A stretch of 64,000 nt of DNA from Clostridia bacterium (GTDB lineage: Bacteria; Bacillota; Clostridia; Oscillospirales; CAG-272). The notes under the pieces are model-generated. The model was not told the origin of the DNA and ran no database searches. It saw nothing but the letters and a program-made list of their open reading frames with translations. The stretch covers positions 529-64,528 of the forward strand of contig JAFVYY010000020.1 in the NCBI GenBank assembly GCA_017508405.1. The letters are read 5' to 3'. Shown here piece by piece: positions 2,299 to 62,159 of the stretch; within the stretch, counting starts at the first letter, position 1; the number at the start of each line of letters is the position of its first letter. The translations under genes were made by a program, and so were the position numbers.

Positions 2299-3366
2299 TT
2301 AGCAACCGATGGTGTTTGCAATGTCGCACATATCAATGAAGTAAGCCTTACGCTCCTCGCAAAGCGCCTTCATATCTTCGATCTGCTCGGGGGTGAATGC
2401 ATCAAGATCTCCATCCTTAAGCTTACCCTTATACATTCTGTCAACAATGAGAGCGTACTTGATATCGGTAGAGATGATCTTATTGTCTCTTGAACAGATT
2501 ACAACGTCGCTCTGACCCTGAAGAAGGAGGTCAACTGCTTTATCTCCCATTACGGATGCAAGAACTCTGTCGCGAAGGGTAGGTCTACCGCCGCGTACTA
2601 TATGAGCAGGGCAGTTATATCTTGCTTCAATACCTGTTTTCTGTTCAATTTCCTTTGTAAGGGACTGAGCGAATGCGGAGCCAAGACCCTCGGCAACAAT
2701 AACCATAAAGCTGCGTCTGCCATTATTTCTTGCCTCTATCATTCTTTCGAAAAGAGCCTCTTTATCAAAGGGAACCTCCTGAAGAGCAACGCCTATTGCG
2801 TTTAATGCGATACCTGTTTCGATGGCAATATAGCCTGCGTTTCTGCCCATAACCTCAACTACTGTGCAGCGAGCGTGGGATTCGGATGTATCACGAAGTC
2901 TGTCGCAAAGCTCAATAACCGTGTTCATAGCGGTGTCAAAGCCGATGGTTGTATCTGTAGCTGTAATATCGTTGTCAATTGTTCCGGGTAAGCCGATGCA
3001 AGGGATACCTCTCACGCTTAAATCCGTAGCGCCACGGAATGTTCCGTCTCCGCCTATAGCGATAATACCGTCAATGTTGTTTTTCTTACAGGTTTCAATA
3101 GCCTTAGCCATACCCTCTTCGGTTTTGAATTCGTCGCAACGGTCTGAGTAGAGATACGTACCGCCGAGGGAAATGATGCCGGAAACGTCATTTTTTGTAA
3201 GTGGCTTGATTCTGTTGTTGATAAGTCCGGAGTATCCTCCGAGAATGCCCACAACCTCAACACCTCTTGAAATTGCCGAGCAAGCTACGCTTTTAATTGC
3301 GGCGCTCATGCCGGGAGCGTCTCCACCGGAAGAAAGGATACCTATTTTTCTGAATTTCTTTTCCAT
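2299..3366 (-). CDS. pfkA: ATP-dependent 6-phosphofructokinase
   Basis: 355 aa. Motifs KIGILSSGGDAPGM, IGGDGTFRGA and GLPGTIDNDI. The GGDG form (not GGDD) suggests ATP dependence. AAGGAG lies 8 nt upstream of the ATG. Confidence 0.92.
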   Translation of the reverse strand: MEKKFRKIGILSSGGDAPGMSAAIKSVACSAISRGVEVVGILGGYSGLINNRIKPLTKNDVSGIISLGGTYLYSDRCDEFKTEEGMAKAIETCKKNNIDGIIAIGGDGTFRGATDLSVRGIPCIGLPGTIDNDITATDTTIGFDTAMNTVIELCDRLRDTSESHARCTVVEVMGRNAGYIAIETGIALNAIGVALQEVPFDKEALFERMIEARNNGRRSFMVIVAEGLGSAFAQSLTKEIEQKTGIEARYNCPAHIVRGGRPTLRDRVLASVMGDKAVDLLLQGQSDVVICSRDNKIISTDIKYALIVDRMYKGKLKDGDLDAFTPEQIEDMKALCEERKAYFIDMCDIANTIGC

Positions 3367-4961: not shown

Positions 4962-5035
4962 GAAATAAAATTCAAGCATAAACAGGAGAGATAATACAAT
5001 GTAAATGTATAATCTCTTCTTTTTTGCTTTTCATC

Positions 5036-5064
5036 TTGAAATCCGTGCGAATAGAGTGTATTAT
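5036..5064 (+). promoter_or_regulatory. Candidate sigma-A-type promoter for the DUF5685 gene
   Basis: TTGAAA (5036-5041), 17-nt spacer, TATTAT (5059-5064). Confidence 0.45.
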
Positions 5065-5097
5065 ATAATATAAGAATGTAACAAGGGGGAGAAGATT

Positions 5098-5970
5098 ATG
5101 TTCGGATATGTTAAACCGCTTGTTCCGGAGCTTAAGGTGAAGGAAAACGAGCTATATAAGGCAACATACTGCGGTCTTTGCCGCACTATGGGTAAAACTA
5201 CAGGATGTCTTTCTAAATTAACACTCAATTACGACTTTACATACCTTGCCCTTGTAAGATACGCTCTTGAGGGAAAGAGCGCTACCGTTAAGATGAGAAG
5301 ATGTATCGTTCATCCGTTCAGAAAAAGACCCATGCTTGAAATTGATGACACTCTTAAGTATTCTGCAAGGGCAAGCGTAATCTTGACAAGACTTAAGCTG
5401 CAGGACAACGTTAATGATTCAAAGGGACTTTCGCGCTTGAAAGCAAAGCTTGCAAAATTTATCTGTATATTCTTAAAAAAGACGGATAAGGAGCTTTTAC
5501 CCTTACAGGAAAGTATAGAAAAGCTAATAGCTGAGCTTAGCGAAAGAGAAAGAGAAAAATGTGATTCTATCGACACTGTGGCGGACATTTTCGGAAATAT
5601 CCTTAAGGAAATAGCATCCTTTGGGCTTGACGGAATAAACAGAAGAATCGCTGAGGAGATAGGTATGCATCTCGGCAGATGGATATACGTTATGGACGCC
5701 TGCGATGATTATGAAAGCGATAAAAAGTCAGGCTCCTATAACCCTTTGATATGCGCTTTCGGCAACTCGCTTACAGAGGATAACATCTACGCTATGCGTA
5801 CGGCGGCAATGTTGGAGCTTGAGGCTATGAGTAAATCGCTGGAGCTTATTGATTTTTCAAGCCATAGGGATGTAGAGGGCTTGGTCAAAAACGTAATTTA
5901 TCTCGGCATGGTTACAGAAACCGACAGGGTTCTTAAGTTTGACGGCTCAAGAGCTTTAAATAATCAGTAA
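5098..5970 (+). CDS. DUF5685-like uncharacterised protein
   Basis: 290 aa. The N-terminus MFGYVKPLVPELKVKENELYKATYCGLCRTMG matches my memory of the DUF5685 family signature (MFGYV...ELKV...Y.A.YCGLC). The assignment is unverified. Confidence 0.6.
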   Translation: MFGYVKPLVPELKVKENELYKATYCGLCRTMGKTTGCLSKLTLNYDFTYLALVRYALEGKSATVKMRRCIVHPFRKRPMLEIDDTLKYSARASVILTRLKLQDNVNDSKGLSRLKAKLAKFICIFLKKTDKELLPLQESIEKLIAELSEREREKCDSIDTVADIFGNILKEIASFGLDGINRRIAEEIGMHLGRWIYVMDACDDYESDKKSGSYNPLICAFGNSLTEDNIYAMRTAAMLELEAMSKSLELIDFSSHRDVEGLVKNVIYLGMVTETDRVLKFDGSRALNNQ

Positions 5971-6692: not shown

Positions 6693-7211
6693 ATGAGAAA
6701 AACAAAAAATCTTACATTTTGCTCCATTATGGTTGCCTTGAGTGTGGTGCTTTTGTTTATTTGCTCCTTTTTGGAATCTCTTAATCTTACCGCAGTGCTT
6801 CTTTCATCTATTTGTGTTTTTGTGGTAGATGAGGAGCTTCATATGAAGCGTGCGCTGGGAGTATACCTCGCAACGGGGATCTTGGCGTTTCTTTTGCTCC
6901 CGTCAAAGCTTATTGCAATTGAATATTTTATCTATGCTTTATATCCTGTTCTTAAGCGCCAAATAGGTAAAACAGGCAGAGGAGTGTCGATAATTCTAAA
7001 GGGAATTTACATTATGGCGGCTACTGTTGGAGATCTTGCCGTAATAAAGCTGTTTTTCCCTTCCGAAATAGAAAGTCAGCTTTTGTATATACTTTCGGGA
7101 GTTGTCGGAGTGATTTGGATAATTTTGTACGATCTTTTTTATTCAAGACTTGCAAAGTTGTATCATTTCAAATTAAGACATCAGCTCAGAATAGATAAAT
7201 TCTTCGACTAA
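6693..7211 (+). CDS. Hypothetical polytopic membrane protein
   Basis: 172 aa with about five hydrophobic segments. AAGGAG lies 5 nt upstream. It starts 9 nt after the J-protein stop. I recognise no family. Confidence 0.6.
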   Translation: MRKTKNLTFCSIMVALSVVLLFICSFLESLNLTAVLLSSICVFVVDEELHMKRALGVYLATGILAFLLLPSKLIAIEYFIYALYPVLKRQIGKTGRGVSIILKGIYIMAATVGDLAVIKLFFPSEIESQLLYILSGVVGVIWIILYDLFYSRLAKLYHFKLRHQLRIDKFFD

Positions 7212-7349: not shown

Positions 7350-8237
7350 ATGTTTAGAAGCATGACTGCCTTTGCAAGAGCCAGACAGACGGTTAACGGC
7401 AAGGATATAACAGCGGAAATCAAATCCGTAAATAACAGATATTTTGACTGCACTGTGAAAATATCAAGACTTTACAGCTTCCTTGAGGATAAAATCAAGC
7501 AGTATATTTCTCAAAAGGGAATTTCAAGAGGTAAGATCGAGGTATATGTAAACGTGGACGTTCTTACTCAGGAGGGTATAGAGATCTCACTGGATACTGC
7601 CTATGCAAAATCCTACATTGACGCTCTTTACAAGCTTCGTGACACCTTTGACTTAAAGGATGATATTACTGTTACAAGAATCGCTTCGAACAAGGATATC
7701 TTTAACGTAAAGAAGCCTGAGGATGACATAGAGGGTGACTGGGAGGATATCAAGGCTGTTCTTGATGTTGCTCTTGACGGATTTATAGAAAGAAGAATTA
7801 CAGAGGGTGAAAATCTTCTCAAAAATATACGGGAGAAAATCGATAATATCAAGGGGTATGTTGCAAAAATTTCCGAAAATTCCGAAAGAGATACTAAGGA
7901 ATACGGAAATAAGCTTAAGGAAAGAATTATCAAATTCCTTGATGAGCAGGCTCTCCGTATAGACGAGCAGAGAATTCTTACCGAGGTTGCTATCTTTGCC
8001 GATAAGATAGCTATTGATGAGGAGCTTGTAAGACTTGACAGCCACTTCGGTGCATTTGAGGAGATCGCGTCTTCAAATGAGCCTGCCGGCAGAAAGCTTG
8101 ACTTCCTTGTTCAGGAAATGAACAGAGAAACTAATACGATGGGCTCCAAGGCGTCCAATTCCGATACTGCTCATCTCGTTGTAAATATCAAGAACGAGCT
8201 TGAAAAAATCAGAGAGCAGATCCAGAATATAGAGTAA
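7350..8237 (+). CDS. yicC: YicC/YloC family stress-induced protein (endoribonuclease YloC-like)
   Basis: 295 aa. The motifs [21 protein letters not shown] and C-terminal [13 protein letters not shown] are typical of YicC. It occupies the yloC position upstream of remA-gmk. Confidence 0.88.
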
Positions 8238-56844: not shown

Positions 56845-58092
56845 TCATTCTAATTTTCTTATATGAAAATTGAGGGTGACAAGGTTGAAAACAGTTAAAA
56901 GAGCGATATTTACATCGGACACTGTCCACATAAGAGATGAGGGCACAAGTGGTGAGAGAATACAGACTGAGGCTGATAAAATAGCGAAGAGAGTGTGGAT
57001 AATTTTGCTGTTTGTAATATATGAAATGGATTTATCGCCATAGTAAAATTGCGAAATAAGAGTTGAAAAAACGTATATTAAACAGGATATTTTTATGAAG
57101 TATTCGCCGAATGCATATAAATAATGTCCGTATGCCTTCGCCACCCATTCAATAGGAGACAAATCTCTTTCTCCATAGATAAGAATAACAAGAGCGGTAA
57201 GAGTGCAAAGAATAACCGTATCAAAAAGCACCTCAAATATTCCAAGGCAAGCCTGTGTATGAGCATCGTTATCCGAGGAGGCGTGTGCAATGGGAGACGT
57301 GCCGCAGCCCGCCTCATTTGATAGCACTCCTCGGCTTACACCGTAACGAACAGCTGTCAGAATACTGAACGTGCCAACGCCCGAAAAGGCTGCCTTAAAA
57401 TTAAAGGCTTCTTTAATGATTTTTGAAAAAACCTCGGGGATGTGTTGATAATTTGTGAAAATAATGTAAAGTGAAAGAATAATATGGGTAAGAGTTAAAA
57501 ATGGGATTACAAGAGATGTTAACGTGCTTATTTTATTGACTCCCTTTCGTACAGTCAAAAGAAGTGAAACCGCAAATAAGCTGCCAATTATAAGGTAATC
57601 TACAGGAAAAACATCCTTTATTGAGTTTATTTGAACGAAATTTCCTGTTATTAAGGAGTTTCCTATGCATAAAACAGAAAAAACTATTGCCAATATTTTC
57701 CCTTTTTTGCTTGGAAAGGCTTCCTTGATGTAGTACGGTGCTCCGCCAAAAGCGACACCGTTATTGATTTTTTTGTACTTTATTGCGAAAAAGGTCTCTG
57801 CATATTTTACGCTCATGGCTACGATTGCCGATGCACACATCCAGAAAAGAGCACCGGCGCCGCCCACCGTTATGGCGGCGGCGACCCCCGCAATGTTACC
57901 TATACCGAGGGTTCCCGCAAGCGCAAGGGACAGAGCTGAAAAGCCGCCCTTACCCGACATTATGGACTTTGCCGTATTCAACGGTTTAGTAATATAAAAG
58001 AATTTTAATTTTATTCCGTAGCGTATACCGGTAAAGAGAAGAAACAAGGGAAGAAGGATCCCGCATAGAAAAAACATACCGCCATTTAGCAT
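56845..58092 (-). CDS. Alanine/glycine:cation symporter (AGCS) family transporter
   Basis: 415 aa, polytopic. LALAGTLGIGNIAGVAAAITVGGAGALFWM matches the AGCS signature region. Confidence 0.8.
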   Translation of the reverse strand: MLNGGMFFLCGILLPLFLLFTGIRYGIKLKFFYITKPLNTAKSIMSGKGGFSALSLALAGTLGIGNIAGVAAAITVGGAGALFWMCASAIVAMSVKYAETFFAIKYKKINNGVAFGGAPYYIKEAFPSKKGKILAIVFSVLCIGNSLITGNFVQINSIKDVFPVDYLIIGSLFAVSLLLTVRKGVNKISTLTSLVIPFLTLTHIILSLYIIFTNYQHIPEVFSKIIKEAFNFKAAFSGVGTFSILTAVRYGVSRGVLSNEAGCGTSPIAHASSDNDAHTQACLGIFEVLFDTVILCTLTALVILIYGERDLSPIEWVAKAYGHYLYAFGEYFIKISCLIYVFSTLISQFYYGDKSISYITNSKIIHTLFAILSASVCILSPLVPSSLMWTVSDVNIALLTVFNLVTLNFHIRKLE

Positions 58093-58183
58093 AAAATCAC
58101 CACCGAATATAATATATTCATCATGTAGAGTTAATTATATTAAGGAGGATTGTTAATTATTTGTGAACAATGATGTCTACCCC

Positions 58184-58265: not shown

Positions 58266-60195
<1,930 letters not shown>

Positions 60196-60196
60196 T

Positions 60197-60399
60197 TGAG
60201 TTGTGAAAATCACAACTCATCGATATAAATCCCTTGTGGGATTTTCGATATGTTGCTAACGTAACTCGATATAGCTACGCTCGATATGTTTGTTTCACAA
60301 ACGAGAGATTTATATCATATCGAAACCGACCGAGAGGGAGGTTATATCGAATTTGCCGAGATGCAAATATATAGAGTCGAGCATAGCGAAACATATCGA
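60197..60399 (+). repeat. Repeat-rich structured region in the groEL 3' trailer: 4 TCGATAT and 3 inverted ATATCGA copies plus local hairpins
   Basis: TCGATAT at 60220, 60245, 60266 and 60281. ATATCGA at 60317, 60344 and 60393. Hairpins are TGAGTTGTG/CACAACTCA (60197-60219) and AAATCCC/GGGATTT (60227-60244). Nested long-range complementarity: 60245-60254 with 60390-60399 (10 bp), 60266-60273 with 60343-60350 (8 bp), and 60281-60288 with 60316-60323 (8 bp). Confidence 0.6.
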
Positions 60400-60406
60400 C
60401 GAAAAA

Positions 60407-60440
60407 ACAAATCGGCACCCTCGGGTGCCGATTTGTTTTT
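60407..60440 (+). terminator. Strong rho-independent terminator ending the groESL transcript
   Basis: ACAAATCGGCACCC (60407-60420) pairs with GGGTGCCGATTTGT (60423-60436), followed by TTTT. An A-run lies upstream. Confidence 0.85.
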
Positions 60441-60602
60441 AATATCCGACTCGGTCGACTTCATCCGTGGCAGATTTCATTTTATAGCTGTACATATATT
60501 GGAAATTGTGATAAAATATTTTTTGAGATTTTAATTAACCGATTGATTTTTTCTTTCACTATAATGGCAGAAGCTTCTAAAAACCGAAAGGGAGGTGAGC
60601 AA

Positions 60603-62159
60603 ATGGACGAAAGCAAATTTAACGAAAAGCTGACAGACGCGGCAAAAACTATTTTCTCATTTTATATGGCTAAAACATCAAACAGAGAGGATGCGGAGGA
60701 TTTGTCGCAGGATATACTGTATGAGCTTATTAAATCCTCGGGCAGTATAAGAGATGATGGCGCATTTTACGGCTTTATGTGGGCTGTAGCTAACAATGTA
60801 TATAATCATTGGTACAAAAGGAAATTAAAGAACGCAACCTATGAGCTGGATGAAAATATGGCGTCGGAGGATGACCTTTTTGATGTAGAGGGTAATACCG
60901 ATATTTATCTTTTGCGTAGAGAATTGACTTTGCTTTCTGAAAAGTACAGAAAAGCAACTATTTTGTACTATATTGATGGAAGATCCTGTCGAGAAATTGC
61001 TCAATCCTTAAATATCACGGAAAGTATGGTAAAATACCTGCTTTTCAAATCGAGAAAAATATTGAAAGAAGGAATGAATATGGAAAGAAATCTCGGAGAG
61101 CTTAGCTATAACCCTAAAACATTGCATCCAATGTACCACGGTCAGGGACCTAATCGGTTTTATGATTTTATGCAGAGCAAGATAAGACAGAATATTGTGG
61201 GAGCGTGCTACAATGACTCATTGACATTACAGCAAATAAGCCTAGAAACAGGAATACCGCTTCCGTACATTGACGATGAAGTTAAGGCACTTGAAGATAA
61301 AAAGATTATAATCAAGGAGGGTAAGCACTATAAATCAAATATAGTCATTATTTCAACTGAATGTGCCAACGAGATTGAACGAGCCGTTATAAAGTATCAC
61401 AATATTATTGCTGATAAAATGAAAGCTTTTATTGAAGAAAAGATGTTGGATTATAAAGCAATAGGCTTTATCAACAACGATTTTTCTGAGAATACGTTGC
61501 GTTGGCAGATGGTAGCCATTTTATTTAGAAAGATATGTGGTATAAATAACGAAGCAATCTCTACTCCTAAAACAGGTTGGGGAGAAAACGCTTTCCTTTG
61601 GTGCTTGGAAAAGCTTCCACAAAGCTACATGTTTAATTATTGTGGAGTAAACAGCAAGCAAGGGGATAGTATATATTTCTTTGATTATTTGGGCTCAGAA
61701 AATCGCAAAGGAGATCATCACGATTTTTATGGTAATGAACGCTACATCAATATTTTTTGTGATATTTGTCGAGACGAAAAGAAGAATTTTAGCGAATATG
61801 ACCTCGAAGCCATTGCGGAAATGATAAAGAAGGGTTATGTTGTCAAAGCGGACGATTCATTTAAAACAACTGTTCCGATCTACACAACCGAGCAATACAA
61901 TCAAATCACAGATTCTGCTGAACAGTTTGTATGTGATAGTCTTTCAACCATTATTAAAGAAATGGATGACACAACAGCTCGCATATTAAGTTCGCATACA
62001 CCTAAACATTTACAAGACCAAGTAAACGGAATCGCTGCTACTGATAAGTTTGTAAATGCAGTATGTATTCCTGCAACAATACTAGTTGATAGACGATTTT
62101 TGAGTACCTCTTGGCATCCTTTTGAAATGCCTACGACTTATGTTGTTTTGAATATGTAA
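60603..62159 (+). CDS. Sigma-70 family (ECF-like) RNA polymerase sigma factor with a C-terminal extension of about 330 aa of unknown function
   Basis: ATG at 60603 with GGAGGTG 5 nt upstream; the track start at 60543 lacks an RBS. Region 2-like: REDAEDLSQDILYELIK...FYGFMWAVANNVY. Region 4-like HTH: YYIDGRSCREIAQSLNITESMVKYLLFKSRKILKE. I recognise nothing in the remainder. Confidence 0.75.
   Translation: MDESKFNEKLTDAAKTIFSFYMAKTSNREDAEDLSQDILYELIKSSGSIRDDGAFYGFMWAVANNVYNHWYKRKLKNATYELDENMASEDDLFDVEGNTDIYLLRRELTLLSEKYRKATILYYIDGRSCREIAQSLNITESMVKYLLFKSRKILKEGMNMERNLGELSYNPKTLHPMYHGQGPNRFYDFMQSKIRQNIVGACYNDSLTLQQISLETGIPLPYIDDEVKALEDKKIIIKEGKHYKSNIVIISTECANEIERAVIKYHNIIADKMKAFIEEKMLDYKAIGFINNDFSENTLRWQMVAILFRKICGINNEAISTPKTGWGENAFLWCLEKLPQSYMFNYCGVNSKQGDSIYFFDYLGSENRKGDHHDFYGNERYINIFCDICRDEKKNFSEYDLEAIAEMIKKGYVVKADDSFKTTVPIYTTEQYNQITDSAEQFVCDSLSTIIKEMDDTTARILSSHTPKHLQDQVNGIAATDKFVNAVCIPATILVDRRFLSTSWHPFEMPTTYVVLNM

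Follow-up and report, generated by a model that had tools for sequence, protein, structure and literature searches.

Gut-1 (Rfam RF01706) was described as a likely non-coding RNA found in human gut metagenomes only, comprising 43 members and having no assigned function (Weinberg et al. 2010, PMC2864571). Its consensus comprises three hairpins spaced by GUGAAAU, and in the published seed with its flanks forward GUGAUAU units are followed by inverted AUAUCAC units (PMC2864571). No literature on Gut-1, RF01706 or the linker strings was found beyond the 2010 paper. Here we analysed the region 3′ of groEL in a 64-kb stretch of DNA from a Clostridia bacterium (the window; positions are counted from its first base), in which the heptamer TCGATAT and its complement cluster between the groEL stop codon and the groESL terminator. 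The heptamers are the linkers between the short hairpins of one full-length, diverged two-armed repeat of ∼205 bases (60196–60402), and this groEL-tail copy is a variant of a known, uncharacterised family. By sequence, the forward half of the dispersed repeat corresponds to Gut-1. The groEL-tail copy is probably a diverged full-length member of a dispersed repeat similar to repetitive extragenic palindromes (REP) or BOX elements, co-transcribed in the 3′ untranslated region (UTR) of groESL, rather than a groEL-specific regulator.

BOX elements of pneumococci are alike in being modular, with a variable number of subunits, a predicted RNA structure, an intergenic position, co-transcription with their neighbours and a debated function. 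Their subunits of ∼45–60 nt are conserved in sequence, and they have neither a unit of 7-nt linker plus mini-hairpin nor mirrored arms. Small RNAs derived from 3′ UTRs and the 3′ external transcribed spacers of tRNAs likewise lie directly after a coding gene or tRNA in sense orientation, and are single-locus, sequence-specific regulators. In contrast to these, the element is dispersed, polymorphic and missing at the corresponding locus of close relatives. REP families each have one conserved palindrome, a GT(A/G)G head, alternating orientation and an associated gene for a REP-associated tyrosine transposase (RAYT), and are reported only from Proteobacteria (PMC2817692). Like REP and bacterial interspersed mosaic elements (BIME), the elements described here are extragenic palindromes with a short conserved head beside the hairpin, clustered in both orientations, kept by complementary changes, located at the 3′ ends of transcription units and numerous in a genome. 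Unlike in REP, the hairpins differ between units and loci and the head has 7 nt, beginning with TCGA in the window; unlike in REP and BIME, the units are direct within each arm and each element switches orientation only once. Whereas REP is associated with a RAYT gene, none is known for the Gut-1-type family, for which no systematic protein search of the carrier genomes, covered here as fragments of ≤8 kb, was made.

A two-armed hairpin array behind groEL

On the + strand TCGATAT starts at 60220, 60245, 60266 and 60281, and its complement ATATCGA at 60317, 60344 and 60393. The original prediction had reported these four forward and three inverted copies as a cluster beyond chance, and both positions and clustering were confirmed. 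The 64 kb contain 13 copies of TCGATAT compared with a chance expectation of 11.9, which is no window-wide excess, and 7 of the 13 are packed into 180 nt (60220–60399). When any 7-mer was counted together with its complement in 200-nt windows, the groEL-tail region reached 7, while the next non-trivial heptamer reached 4.

The linkers run four in one direction and then four in reverse, one of the latter being degenerate. The chain starts with an anchor hairpin (H0), followed by four forward units of linker plus hairpin, a 14-nt centre, and three to four inverted units in which linkers alternate with segments or a hairpin, up to the terminator. The features are listed here with reference to the groEL sites of relatives (numbered with L), of which L010 and L278 carry two-armed copies and L001 a forward-only array.

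58570–60195, + strand: groEL, from the list of open reading frames (ORFs), with GroEL homologues at 100% identity; the co-oriented upstream gene, whose transcript would carry the element
60197–60219, + strand: anchor hairpin H0, TGAGTTGTGA-AAA-TCACAACTCA, without T-run; conserved in L010 and L278
60220–60226, + strand: forward linker L0, TCGATAT
60222–60231, + strand: 5′ strand of helix P1, GATATAAATC, partner of 60307–60316, from complementarity and the covariance model alignment
60227–60244, + strand: hairpin hpA, AAATCCC-TTGT-GGGATTT, homologous to AAATCC-TGT-GGATTT of L001
60245–60251, + strand: forward linker L1, TCGATAT
60252–60265, + strand: hairpin hpB, GTTGC-TAAC-GTAAC, including a G-U pair replaced by G-C in L278
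60266–60272, + strand: forward linker L2, TCGATAT
60273–60281, + strand: hairpin hpC, AGC-TAC-GCT, 3 bp, its last T shared with the next linker; read from the sequence
60281–60287, + strand: forward linker L3, TCGATAT
60288–60302, + strand: hairpin hpD, GTTTG-TTTCA-CAAAC, from the fold
60303–60316, + strand: centre, GAGAGATTTATATC, of which 60307–60316 (GATTTATATC) is the 3′ strand of P1
60317–60323, + strand: inverted linker R1, ATATCGA
60324–60343, + strand: segment equivalent to hpE, AACC-GACCGAGAGGGA-GGTT, identical in L010 and L278
60344–60350, + strand: inverted linker R2, ATATCGA
60351–60368, + strand: hairpin hpF, ATTTGC-CGAGAT-GCAAAT; stem kept and loop varied in L010 and L278
60369–60375, + strand: degenerate inverted linker R3, ATATAGA, which is ATATCGA in L010
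60376–60392, + strand: segment equivalent to hpG, GTCGAGCATAGCGAAAC, poorly paired
60393–60399, + strand: inverted linker R4, ATATCGA
60403–60440, + strand: intrinsic terminator of groESL, a perfect 18-nt inverted repeat with GC-rich core and T-rich tail, bidirectional in form

The 5′ half of hpA can alternatively pair with the centre, which gives P1, a helix of 10 perfect base pairs between 60222–60231 and 60307–60316. L010 has GATATTCGCC/GGCGAATATC at the same place, a compensatory change relative to the window that also affects hpA, so that the first hairpin and the centre changed together. The hpC of the window resembles the canonical hpB (TGC-TAC-GCA).

That a structured, repeat-rich segment lies between the groEL stop (60195) and the terminator, as had been proposed, is in agreement with the fold z-scores and the family match. 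The local hairpins predicted at 60197–60219, 60227–60244 and 60351–60368 were recovered by inverted repeats and folds. Folded with the terminator left out, the + strand has a z-score of −7.3 and the − strand one of −6.9. Both strands are far more stable than shuffled controls; the structure is real but, by energy, not strand-specific.

The simple terminator scan omitted the hairpin at 60403–60440 because the T-run is absorbed into the stem. The terminator is also found in relatives without the element, in L009 and L020 directly after the stop codon, and is thus resident at the locus. No promoter-like site was detected by the promoter scan within 60196–60402, and no terminator lies before 60403. 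Since the sole terminator follows the element, it would be transcribed solely as the 3′ UTR of groES-groEL, and this RNA would fold into H0, a forward array closed by P1, and the hairpins of the inverted arm. Upstream of groES a promoter-like TTAGCA-16-TATAAT is located at 58086–58113; TTAGCA is also how the consensus of the CIRCE (controlling inverted repeat of chaperone expression) operator begins. A small ORF at 60353–60442 (29 codons, TTG start) was rejected as a coding sequence, with mostly non-synonymous changes compared with L010 and L278 and a frame that crosses the terminator. A strong Shine-Dalgarno-like GAGGGAGG stands 11 nt ahead of its TTG (region 60334–60442).

Canonical elements and the link to Gut-1

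When species-representative genomes were scanned for three GTGATAT linkers, at least 120 loci were obtained, nearly all in Clostridia. A canonical copy is also present in a cultured carrier, Roseburia sp. AF12-17LB (L037). Among the matches listed, the carriers are mostly metagenome-assembled genomes (MAGs) of Oscillospiraceae, Acutalibacteraceae, Ruminococcus, Christensenellaceae and Lachnospiraceae from animal and human guts. The canonical core has a very constant length of ∼173 nt, or ∼215 nt with H0, and in the orientation of the Rfam strand the order is H0; (C)AGTTnTATTCGCC-loop-GGCGA; three units of GTGATAT plus hairpin; GTT..GGCGAATAn′A; three units of ATATCAC plus hairpin; and a final ATATCAC. 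The linkers of the window lineage are TCGATAT/ATATCGA, compared with the usual GTGA(T/A)AT/AT(A/T)TCAC. An ATCGAT core, suggested before as the recognition site of a protein, is not the conserved feature, as the sole part common to all relatives is GA(A/T)AT, preceded by two variable bases (GT, GC, GG, TC, AC).

Covariation was analysed in an alignment of 25 canonical elements, with 500 shuffles as control. Pairing in the local hairpins is 94%, with both partners changed in 29 of 38 pairs, a result that 0/500 shuffles reached. P1, which joins the 5′ strand TTnTATTCGCC to the centre GGCGAATAn′AA, is 97.5% paired and again matched by 0/500 shuffles; one of its pairs is AU in 12, CG in 7 and UA in 6 elements, without a mismatch. 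Pairing of forward with inverted linkers, in contrast, showed 0 compensatory changes, all measures being equal to those of the shuffles, and single-sided linker variants are uncompensated, e.g. in 8 of the 25 at one pair. Covariation thus supports P1 and the local hairpins, but not the heptamer helices.

A covariance model of the full element (model R1) built from the same 25 elements finds the window copy at 60219–60401 on the + strand over its full length (model positions 1–174) with 30.1 bits and E=1.7e-4, a rough value from a short calibration; the − strand scores 15.4 bits. The orthologous copies at the groEL site of L010–12 reach 75.7 bits. Model R1 cannot orient forward-only arrays, as a forward array on one strand equals an inverted arm on the other. 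The window copy fits the extended two-armed element in its full-length match, in P1, in the strong preceding hairpin and in the co-oriented upstream gene. A decayed miniature repeat, one of three explanations first considered, comes closest as far as the repeat is concerned, while the full-length copy is not decayed.

With 56.5 and 58.8 bits, the forward arrays of L001 and L003 exceed the gathering score of the Rfam Gut-1 model (50). For the window copy no Gut-1 match was obtained even at E≤10 when 59500–61200 was scanned against Rfam, and the Rfam search that had been recommended yielded on the element itself just microRNA-like noise on the terminator and a sub-threshold CRISPR-DR match. A CRISPR (clustered regularly interspaced short palindromic repeats) array was rejected: the repeat has 7 nt, the ‘spacers’ are palindromes of 8–20 nt, and the sole CRISPR-DR match has 19.6 bits compared with a gathering score of 42. 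Gut-1 and the window copy share short hairpins, 7-nt linkers and their occurrence in gut Clostridia. They differ in the linker, UCGAUAU in the window and GUGA(A/U)AU in Gut-1 with GAUAU as common core, and intermediates (GCGATAT and ACGATAT) occur in L010. The Rfam model spans three forward hairpins alone, without H0, P1, centre or inverted arm. While Gut-1 was presented as a free-standing RNA of human gut metagenomes, the elements found here lie in 3′ regions of genes and tRNAs, also in rumen genomes. Judged from sequence, the window copy is homologous by descent to accepted Gut-1 members, because both occupy the same site, hpA is common to L001 (AAATCC..GGATTT) and a hybrid allele (L277) joins both unit types.

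At the gathering threshold the whole 64 kb give a single Gut-1 match, at 2113–2188 on the + strand with 52.7 bits. It belongs to a second family member at 2090–2298, which starts with a hairpin (2090–2113) overlapping the stop of the ORF 294–2099, continues at about 2114–2200 with four hairpins and the linkers GTGAAAT, GTGAAAT, GCGAAAT, GTGAAAT and GCGATAT, and ends with a bidirectional terminator (2259–2287) common with the convergent ORF 2299–3366. Its orientation is ambiguous, as Gut-1 matches on the + strand, yet model R1 prefers the − strand (41 vs 26 bits). The two family copies of the window share no hairpin sequence, and a pattern scan found no other GATAT-type triple array in the 64 kb.

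Model R1 identified 53 full-length elements in 100 of the listed genome loci. On the Rfam strand, 14 copies lie 30–38 nt after a co-oriented tRNA and 0 after an opposite tRNA, and ∼25 lie 37–107 nt after the stop of a co-oriented ORF, with 3–4 unclear cases. The upstream genes are diverse by eye, judged without a protein-family library. A strong hairpin (H0) precedes every canonical element, with a T-run behind tRNAs and usually none behind ORFs. The same combination of H0, core and downstream terminator adjoins unrelated genes in different genomes. Seven bystander copies in ∼640 kb plus the two in the 64-kb window suggest tens of copies per genome. A three-linker scan of viral contigs gave, among the matches listed, 3 matches in 2/100 loci that fit the element model, and many other listed viral matches are by eye on giant-virus contigs. 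The element is therefore not regarded as a phage feature, being essentially absent from the listed viral contigs.

Some loci carry paired copies. In L074 two copies 2.7 kb apart (2277–2450 and 4995–5160) are near-identical from the third hairpin on and have different 5′ ends. In L070 the copies at 6904–7076 (−) and 7646–7819 (+) point towards each other with tRNA genes in between, their forward arms being similar and their inverted arms different, and L083 has copies at 1021–1182 and 1434–1595. In L112, L131, L081, L044, L067 and L084 a good sigma-70-type promoter of the next gene lies <∼10 nt past the last inverted linker, for example TTGACT-17-TATAAT (L112) or TTGCAC-17-TATACT (L044); there the element sits between hairpin/terminator and promoter, not ahead of a terminator. 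A recurring hairpin GCATTTGT-NNNN-ACAAATGC, often beside GGGTATGGGC..GCCC, occurs within ∼150 nt of several elements (L005, L036, L043, L052, L057, L069, L097, L104) and may be a further dispersed repeat moving along with them.

Alleles at the groEL site in relatives

An exact look-up of the window's GroEL gave no record, and relatives were collected by a search for GroEL homologues, which gave proteins 97–100% identical to that of the window in ‘Clostridia bacterium’ MAGs from rumen and gut. The DNA 3′ of groEL was compared from 40 contigs whose groEL has 82–98% nucleotide identity to the window. At least six alleles occupy this site. The element is missing from L009 and L020–22, where the terminator directly follows the stop codon, and from L013, L014, L016 and L023–30, where the downstream region is a different one. 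Arrays confined to the forward arm, with 2, 4 or 5 units, GTGATAT linkers and a different H0, are present in L001–L008, L015–19, L275–6 and L279–81, while L010–12 have the full two-armed allele with GCGATAT/TCGATAT/ACGATAT linkers plus four ATATCGA. The window-type allele was found in L278 as a 98% identical copy, although its groEL is only ∼92% identical and the downstream gene is another one. In the hybrid allele of L277, the final units of the L001 type follow H0 and the first two units of the window. The groEL of L275 is 97.6% identical to that of the window, yet its allele is forward-only.

A comparison of the window with L010 shows conservation of H0 and of the inverted half (∼92% for this half), whereas the four forward hairpins have unrelated sequences and yet all fold as hairpins. 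In related genomes the element recurs at this site, but is polymorphic or absent in close relatives. On the basis of this allelic series, including L275 with its near-identical groEL and forward-only array, the groEL 3′ site appears to be a hotspot of unit-level recombination, and the element appears dispensable for groEL. A metagenome scan with the window-type segment GAGAGGGAGGTTATATCGA returned 4 matches, all in unrelated coding sequence, and no further window-type copies.

Several other observations were made at this site. The stretch GAGAGGGAGG of the region 60334–60442 is invariant in all three window-type copies. In L275 and L276 groEL is 100% identical to the window over the first half and 95–97% over the second, the 3′ element is different, and an HTH_3 protein gene takes the downstream place of the sigma factor gene; the pattern points to a recombination breakpoint inside groEL. 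In L005–L008, ∼60 nt after the groEL stop, the terminator is interrupted after AAAATCGGCAC by a GC-rich, hairpin-filled insertion of >400 nt, a repeated or mobile sequence of another kind. Past the groEL terminator, and ahead of the promoter of the sigma-factor gene, lies an array of ATTTCAT plus short hairpin (window 60458–60480; also L009, L010, L015 and L020). It has 3–4 units in relatives, e.g. ATTTCAT-CCGGAACGG-ATTTCAT-CTGTAAAACAG-ATTTCAT-CCACAACGTGG-ATTTCAT, and two ATTTCAT-like copies only in the window. Because ATTTCAT is the complement of an AUGAAAU linker, it looks like a Gut-1-type array on the − strand.

RNA-level and DNA-level readings

We favour a dispersed repeat that is carried along in the groESL transcript. 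Its strict sense orientation, the covariation of hairpins and P1, and the G-U pair of hpB that is G-C in L278 support a role linked to RNA or transcription. Such an element would act on the 3′ end of the message at most in a generic way, as a barrier to 3′ exonucleases or through a modest change in half-life, like REP/BIME or BOX, while at the DNA level it would be gained, lost and reshuffled via recombination between the short linkers. Since close relatives lack the element or carry other alleles, a groEL-specific regulator is not what we would expect.

Several points weigh against the co-transcribed repeat. The stems are nearly purely Watson-Crick, with 13 G-T versus 14 A-C in ∼1,800 pairs (both ∼1%), the loop sequences of one arm mirror those of the other (TTC/TAC/TGC/TTAC vs GAA/GTA/GCA/GTAA), and the window copy folds as well on one strand as on the other; these three features fit a constraint at the DNA level at least as well as one on RNA. 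A constraint at the DNA level is also favoured by the linkers of the window lineage, which changed in concert, and by copies located between a T-run terminator and the next promoter. Behind tRNAs H0 with its T-run looks like a working terminator, and an element following it may barely be transcribed. The copies of window and L278 are 98% identical while their groEL genes are at ∼92%, and the inverted half is ∼92% conserved in L010, suggesting either constraint beyond the need of a passive repeat or a recent exchange of the element. Finally, it is by analogy that the element may act as an mRNA stabiliser. The present sequence evidence is compatible with both the RNA and the DNA reading.

A more far-reaching interpretation is possible, though we hold it to be doubtful: an unrecognised class of orientation-locked two-armed hairpin-array repeats that spread to 3′ ends in gut Clostridia together with a dedicated partner. 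The partner would be a mobilising enzyme or a protein reading the hairpin-flanked GA(A/U)AU linkers, and the groEL copy would represent a lineage with a concerted linker shift.

The element may instead act as DNA, as a non-autonomous mobile element similar to miniature inverted-repeat transposable elements (MITE) or REPIN, as a cruciform or as a BIME-like protein-binding site, its RNA copy being irrelevant. This we regard as unlikely, although the Watson-Crick stems and the mirror-image arms, whose linkers and loops are biased alike on opposite strands, are in its favour, as are the joint change of all 7–8 linkers in the window lineage and the copies lying between terminator and promoter. It would also account for near-identical copies 2.7 kb apart (L074), adjacent inverted copies (L070), one module beside unrelated genes, and presence/absence and hybrid alleles at the groEL site. 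However, the orientation is locked to upstream transcription (14 vs 0 for tRNAs, ∼25 vs 3–4 unclear for ORFs). Of the two hallmarks of a MITE, terminal inverted repeats and a target-site duplication, the arms are inverted relative to each other, and no duplication is visible when empty (L009, L020) and filled groEL sites are compared. Furthermore, no transposase turned up nearby, though no systematic search was made, the two window copies share no hairpin sequence and thus give no sign of recent transposition here, and hairpin sequences differ from unit to unit, unlike in REPs.

The linkers with their GA(A/U)AU core could alternatively be repeated single-stranded sites, displayed between hairpins, to which an RNA-binding protein or another, complementary RNA attaches. 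Such a binding platform or sponge, which would titrate the factor or draw it to mRNA 3′ ends, is quite unlikely in our judgement. Its architecture resembles that of multi-site sponge RNAs, conservation is highest in the linker core whereas the hairpins vary freely in sequence, the number of units varies among alleles, and forward arrays are always sense-oriented in 3′ regions. Yet a single genome contains three linker versions, GTGAAAT/GCGAAAT (2114–2200), TCGATAT (60220–60287) and ATGAAAT (− strand, ∼60458–60480), so that a single factor would have to accept just a 5-nt core; moreover, the inverted arm shows the complement and not the motif, and no candidate factor is known.

The original prediction envisaged a small RNA or stability element of the 3′ UTR with three nested heptamer helices as its core. 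The complementarity exists, a forward linker plus 3 nt can form 10 bp with R4 both in the window (GTT/AAC) and in L010 (GTC/GAC), and forward and inverted linkers changed together in the window lineage. The three helices are only one choice among several, as every forward heptamer is complementary to every inverted one and TCGA can pair with itself. The minimum-free-energy fold contains one linker-linker helix, 60220–60226/60393–60399, and not the three envisaged, and the centroid fold has no long helices. Since linker pairing shows no compensatory change in the 25 canonical elements, forward-only alleles lack any partner, and the helix that does covary, P1, would cross these helices, we consider a nested core very improbable. 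Another helix of the minimum-free-energy fold (60274–60284/60377–60387) was discarded, being disrupted in L278 and missing from L010. Chance clustering or a decaying remnant without coherent architecture, to which the degenerate linker ATATAGA and the poorly paired last segment might point, is effectively refuted by the top heptamer cluster of the window, the full-length match to the family model and the 98% identity to a copy in a lineage with ∼92% identical groEL.

Seen together with its relatives, the groEL locus changes the picture of Gut-1, which has been in Rfam as an orphan since 2010 and is now seen to be just the forward arm of a longer element. To this are added a covarying closing helix, an inverted second arm, dispersal, a rule of orientation on the 3′ side of co-oriented genes and tRNAs, and a polymorphism at the level of single units, visible as an allelic series. 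Diverged copies such as the one behind groEL escape the Rfam model. The findings also call for caution when such arrays are read as locus-specific regulators of the preceding gene, here a heat-shock chaperonin operon, and they provide a concrete object for asking whether the abundant uncultured Clostridia of the gut carry a counterpart of REP/BIME or BOX.

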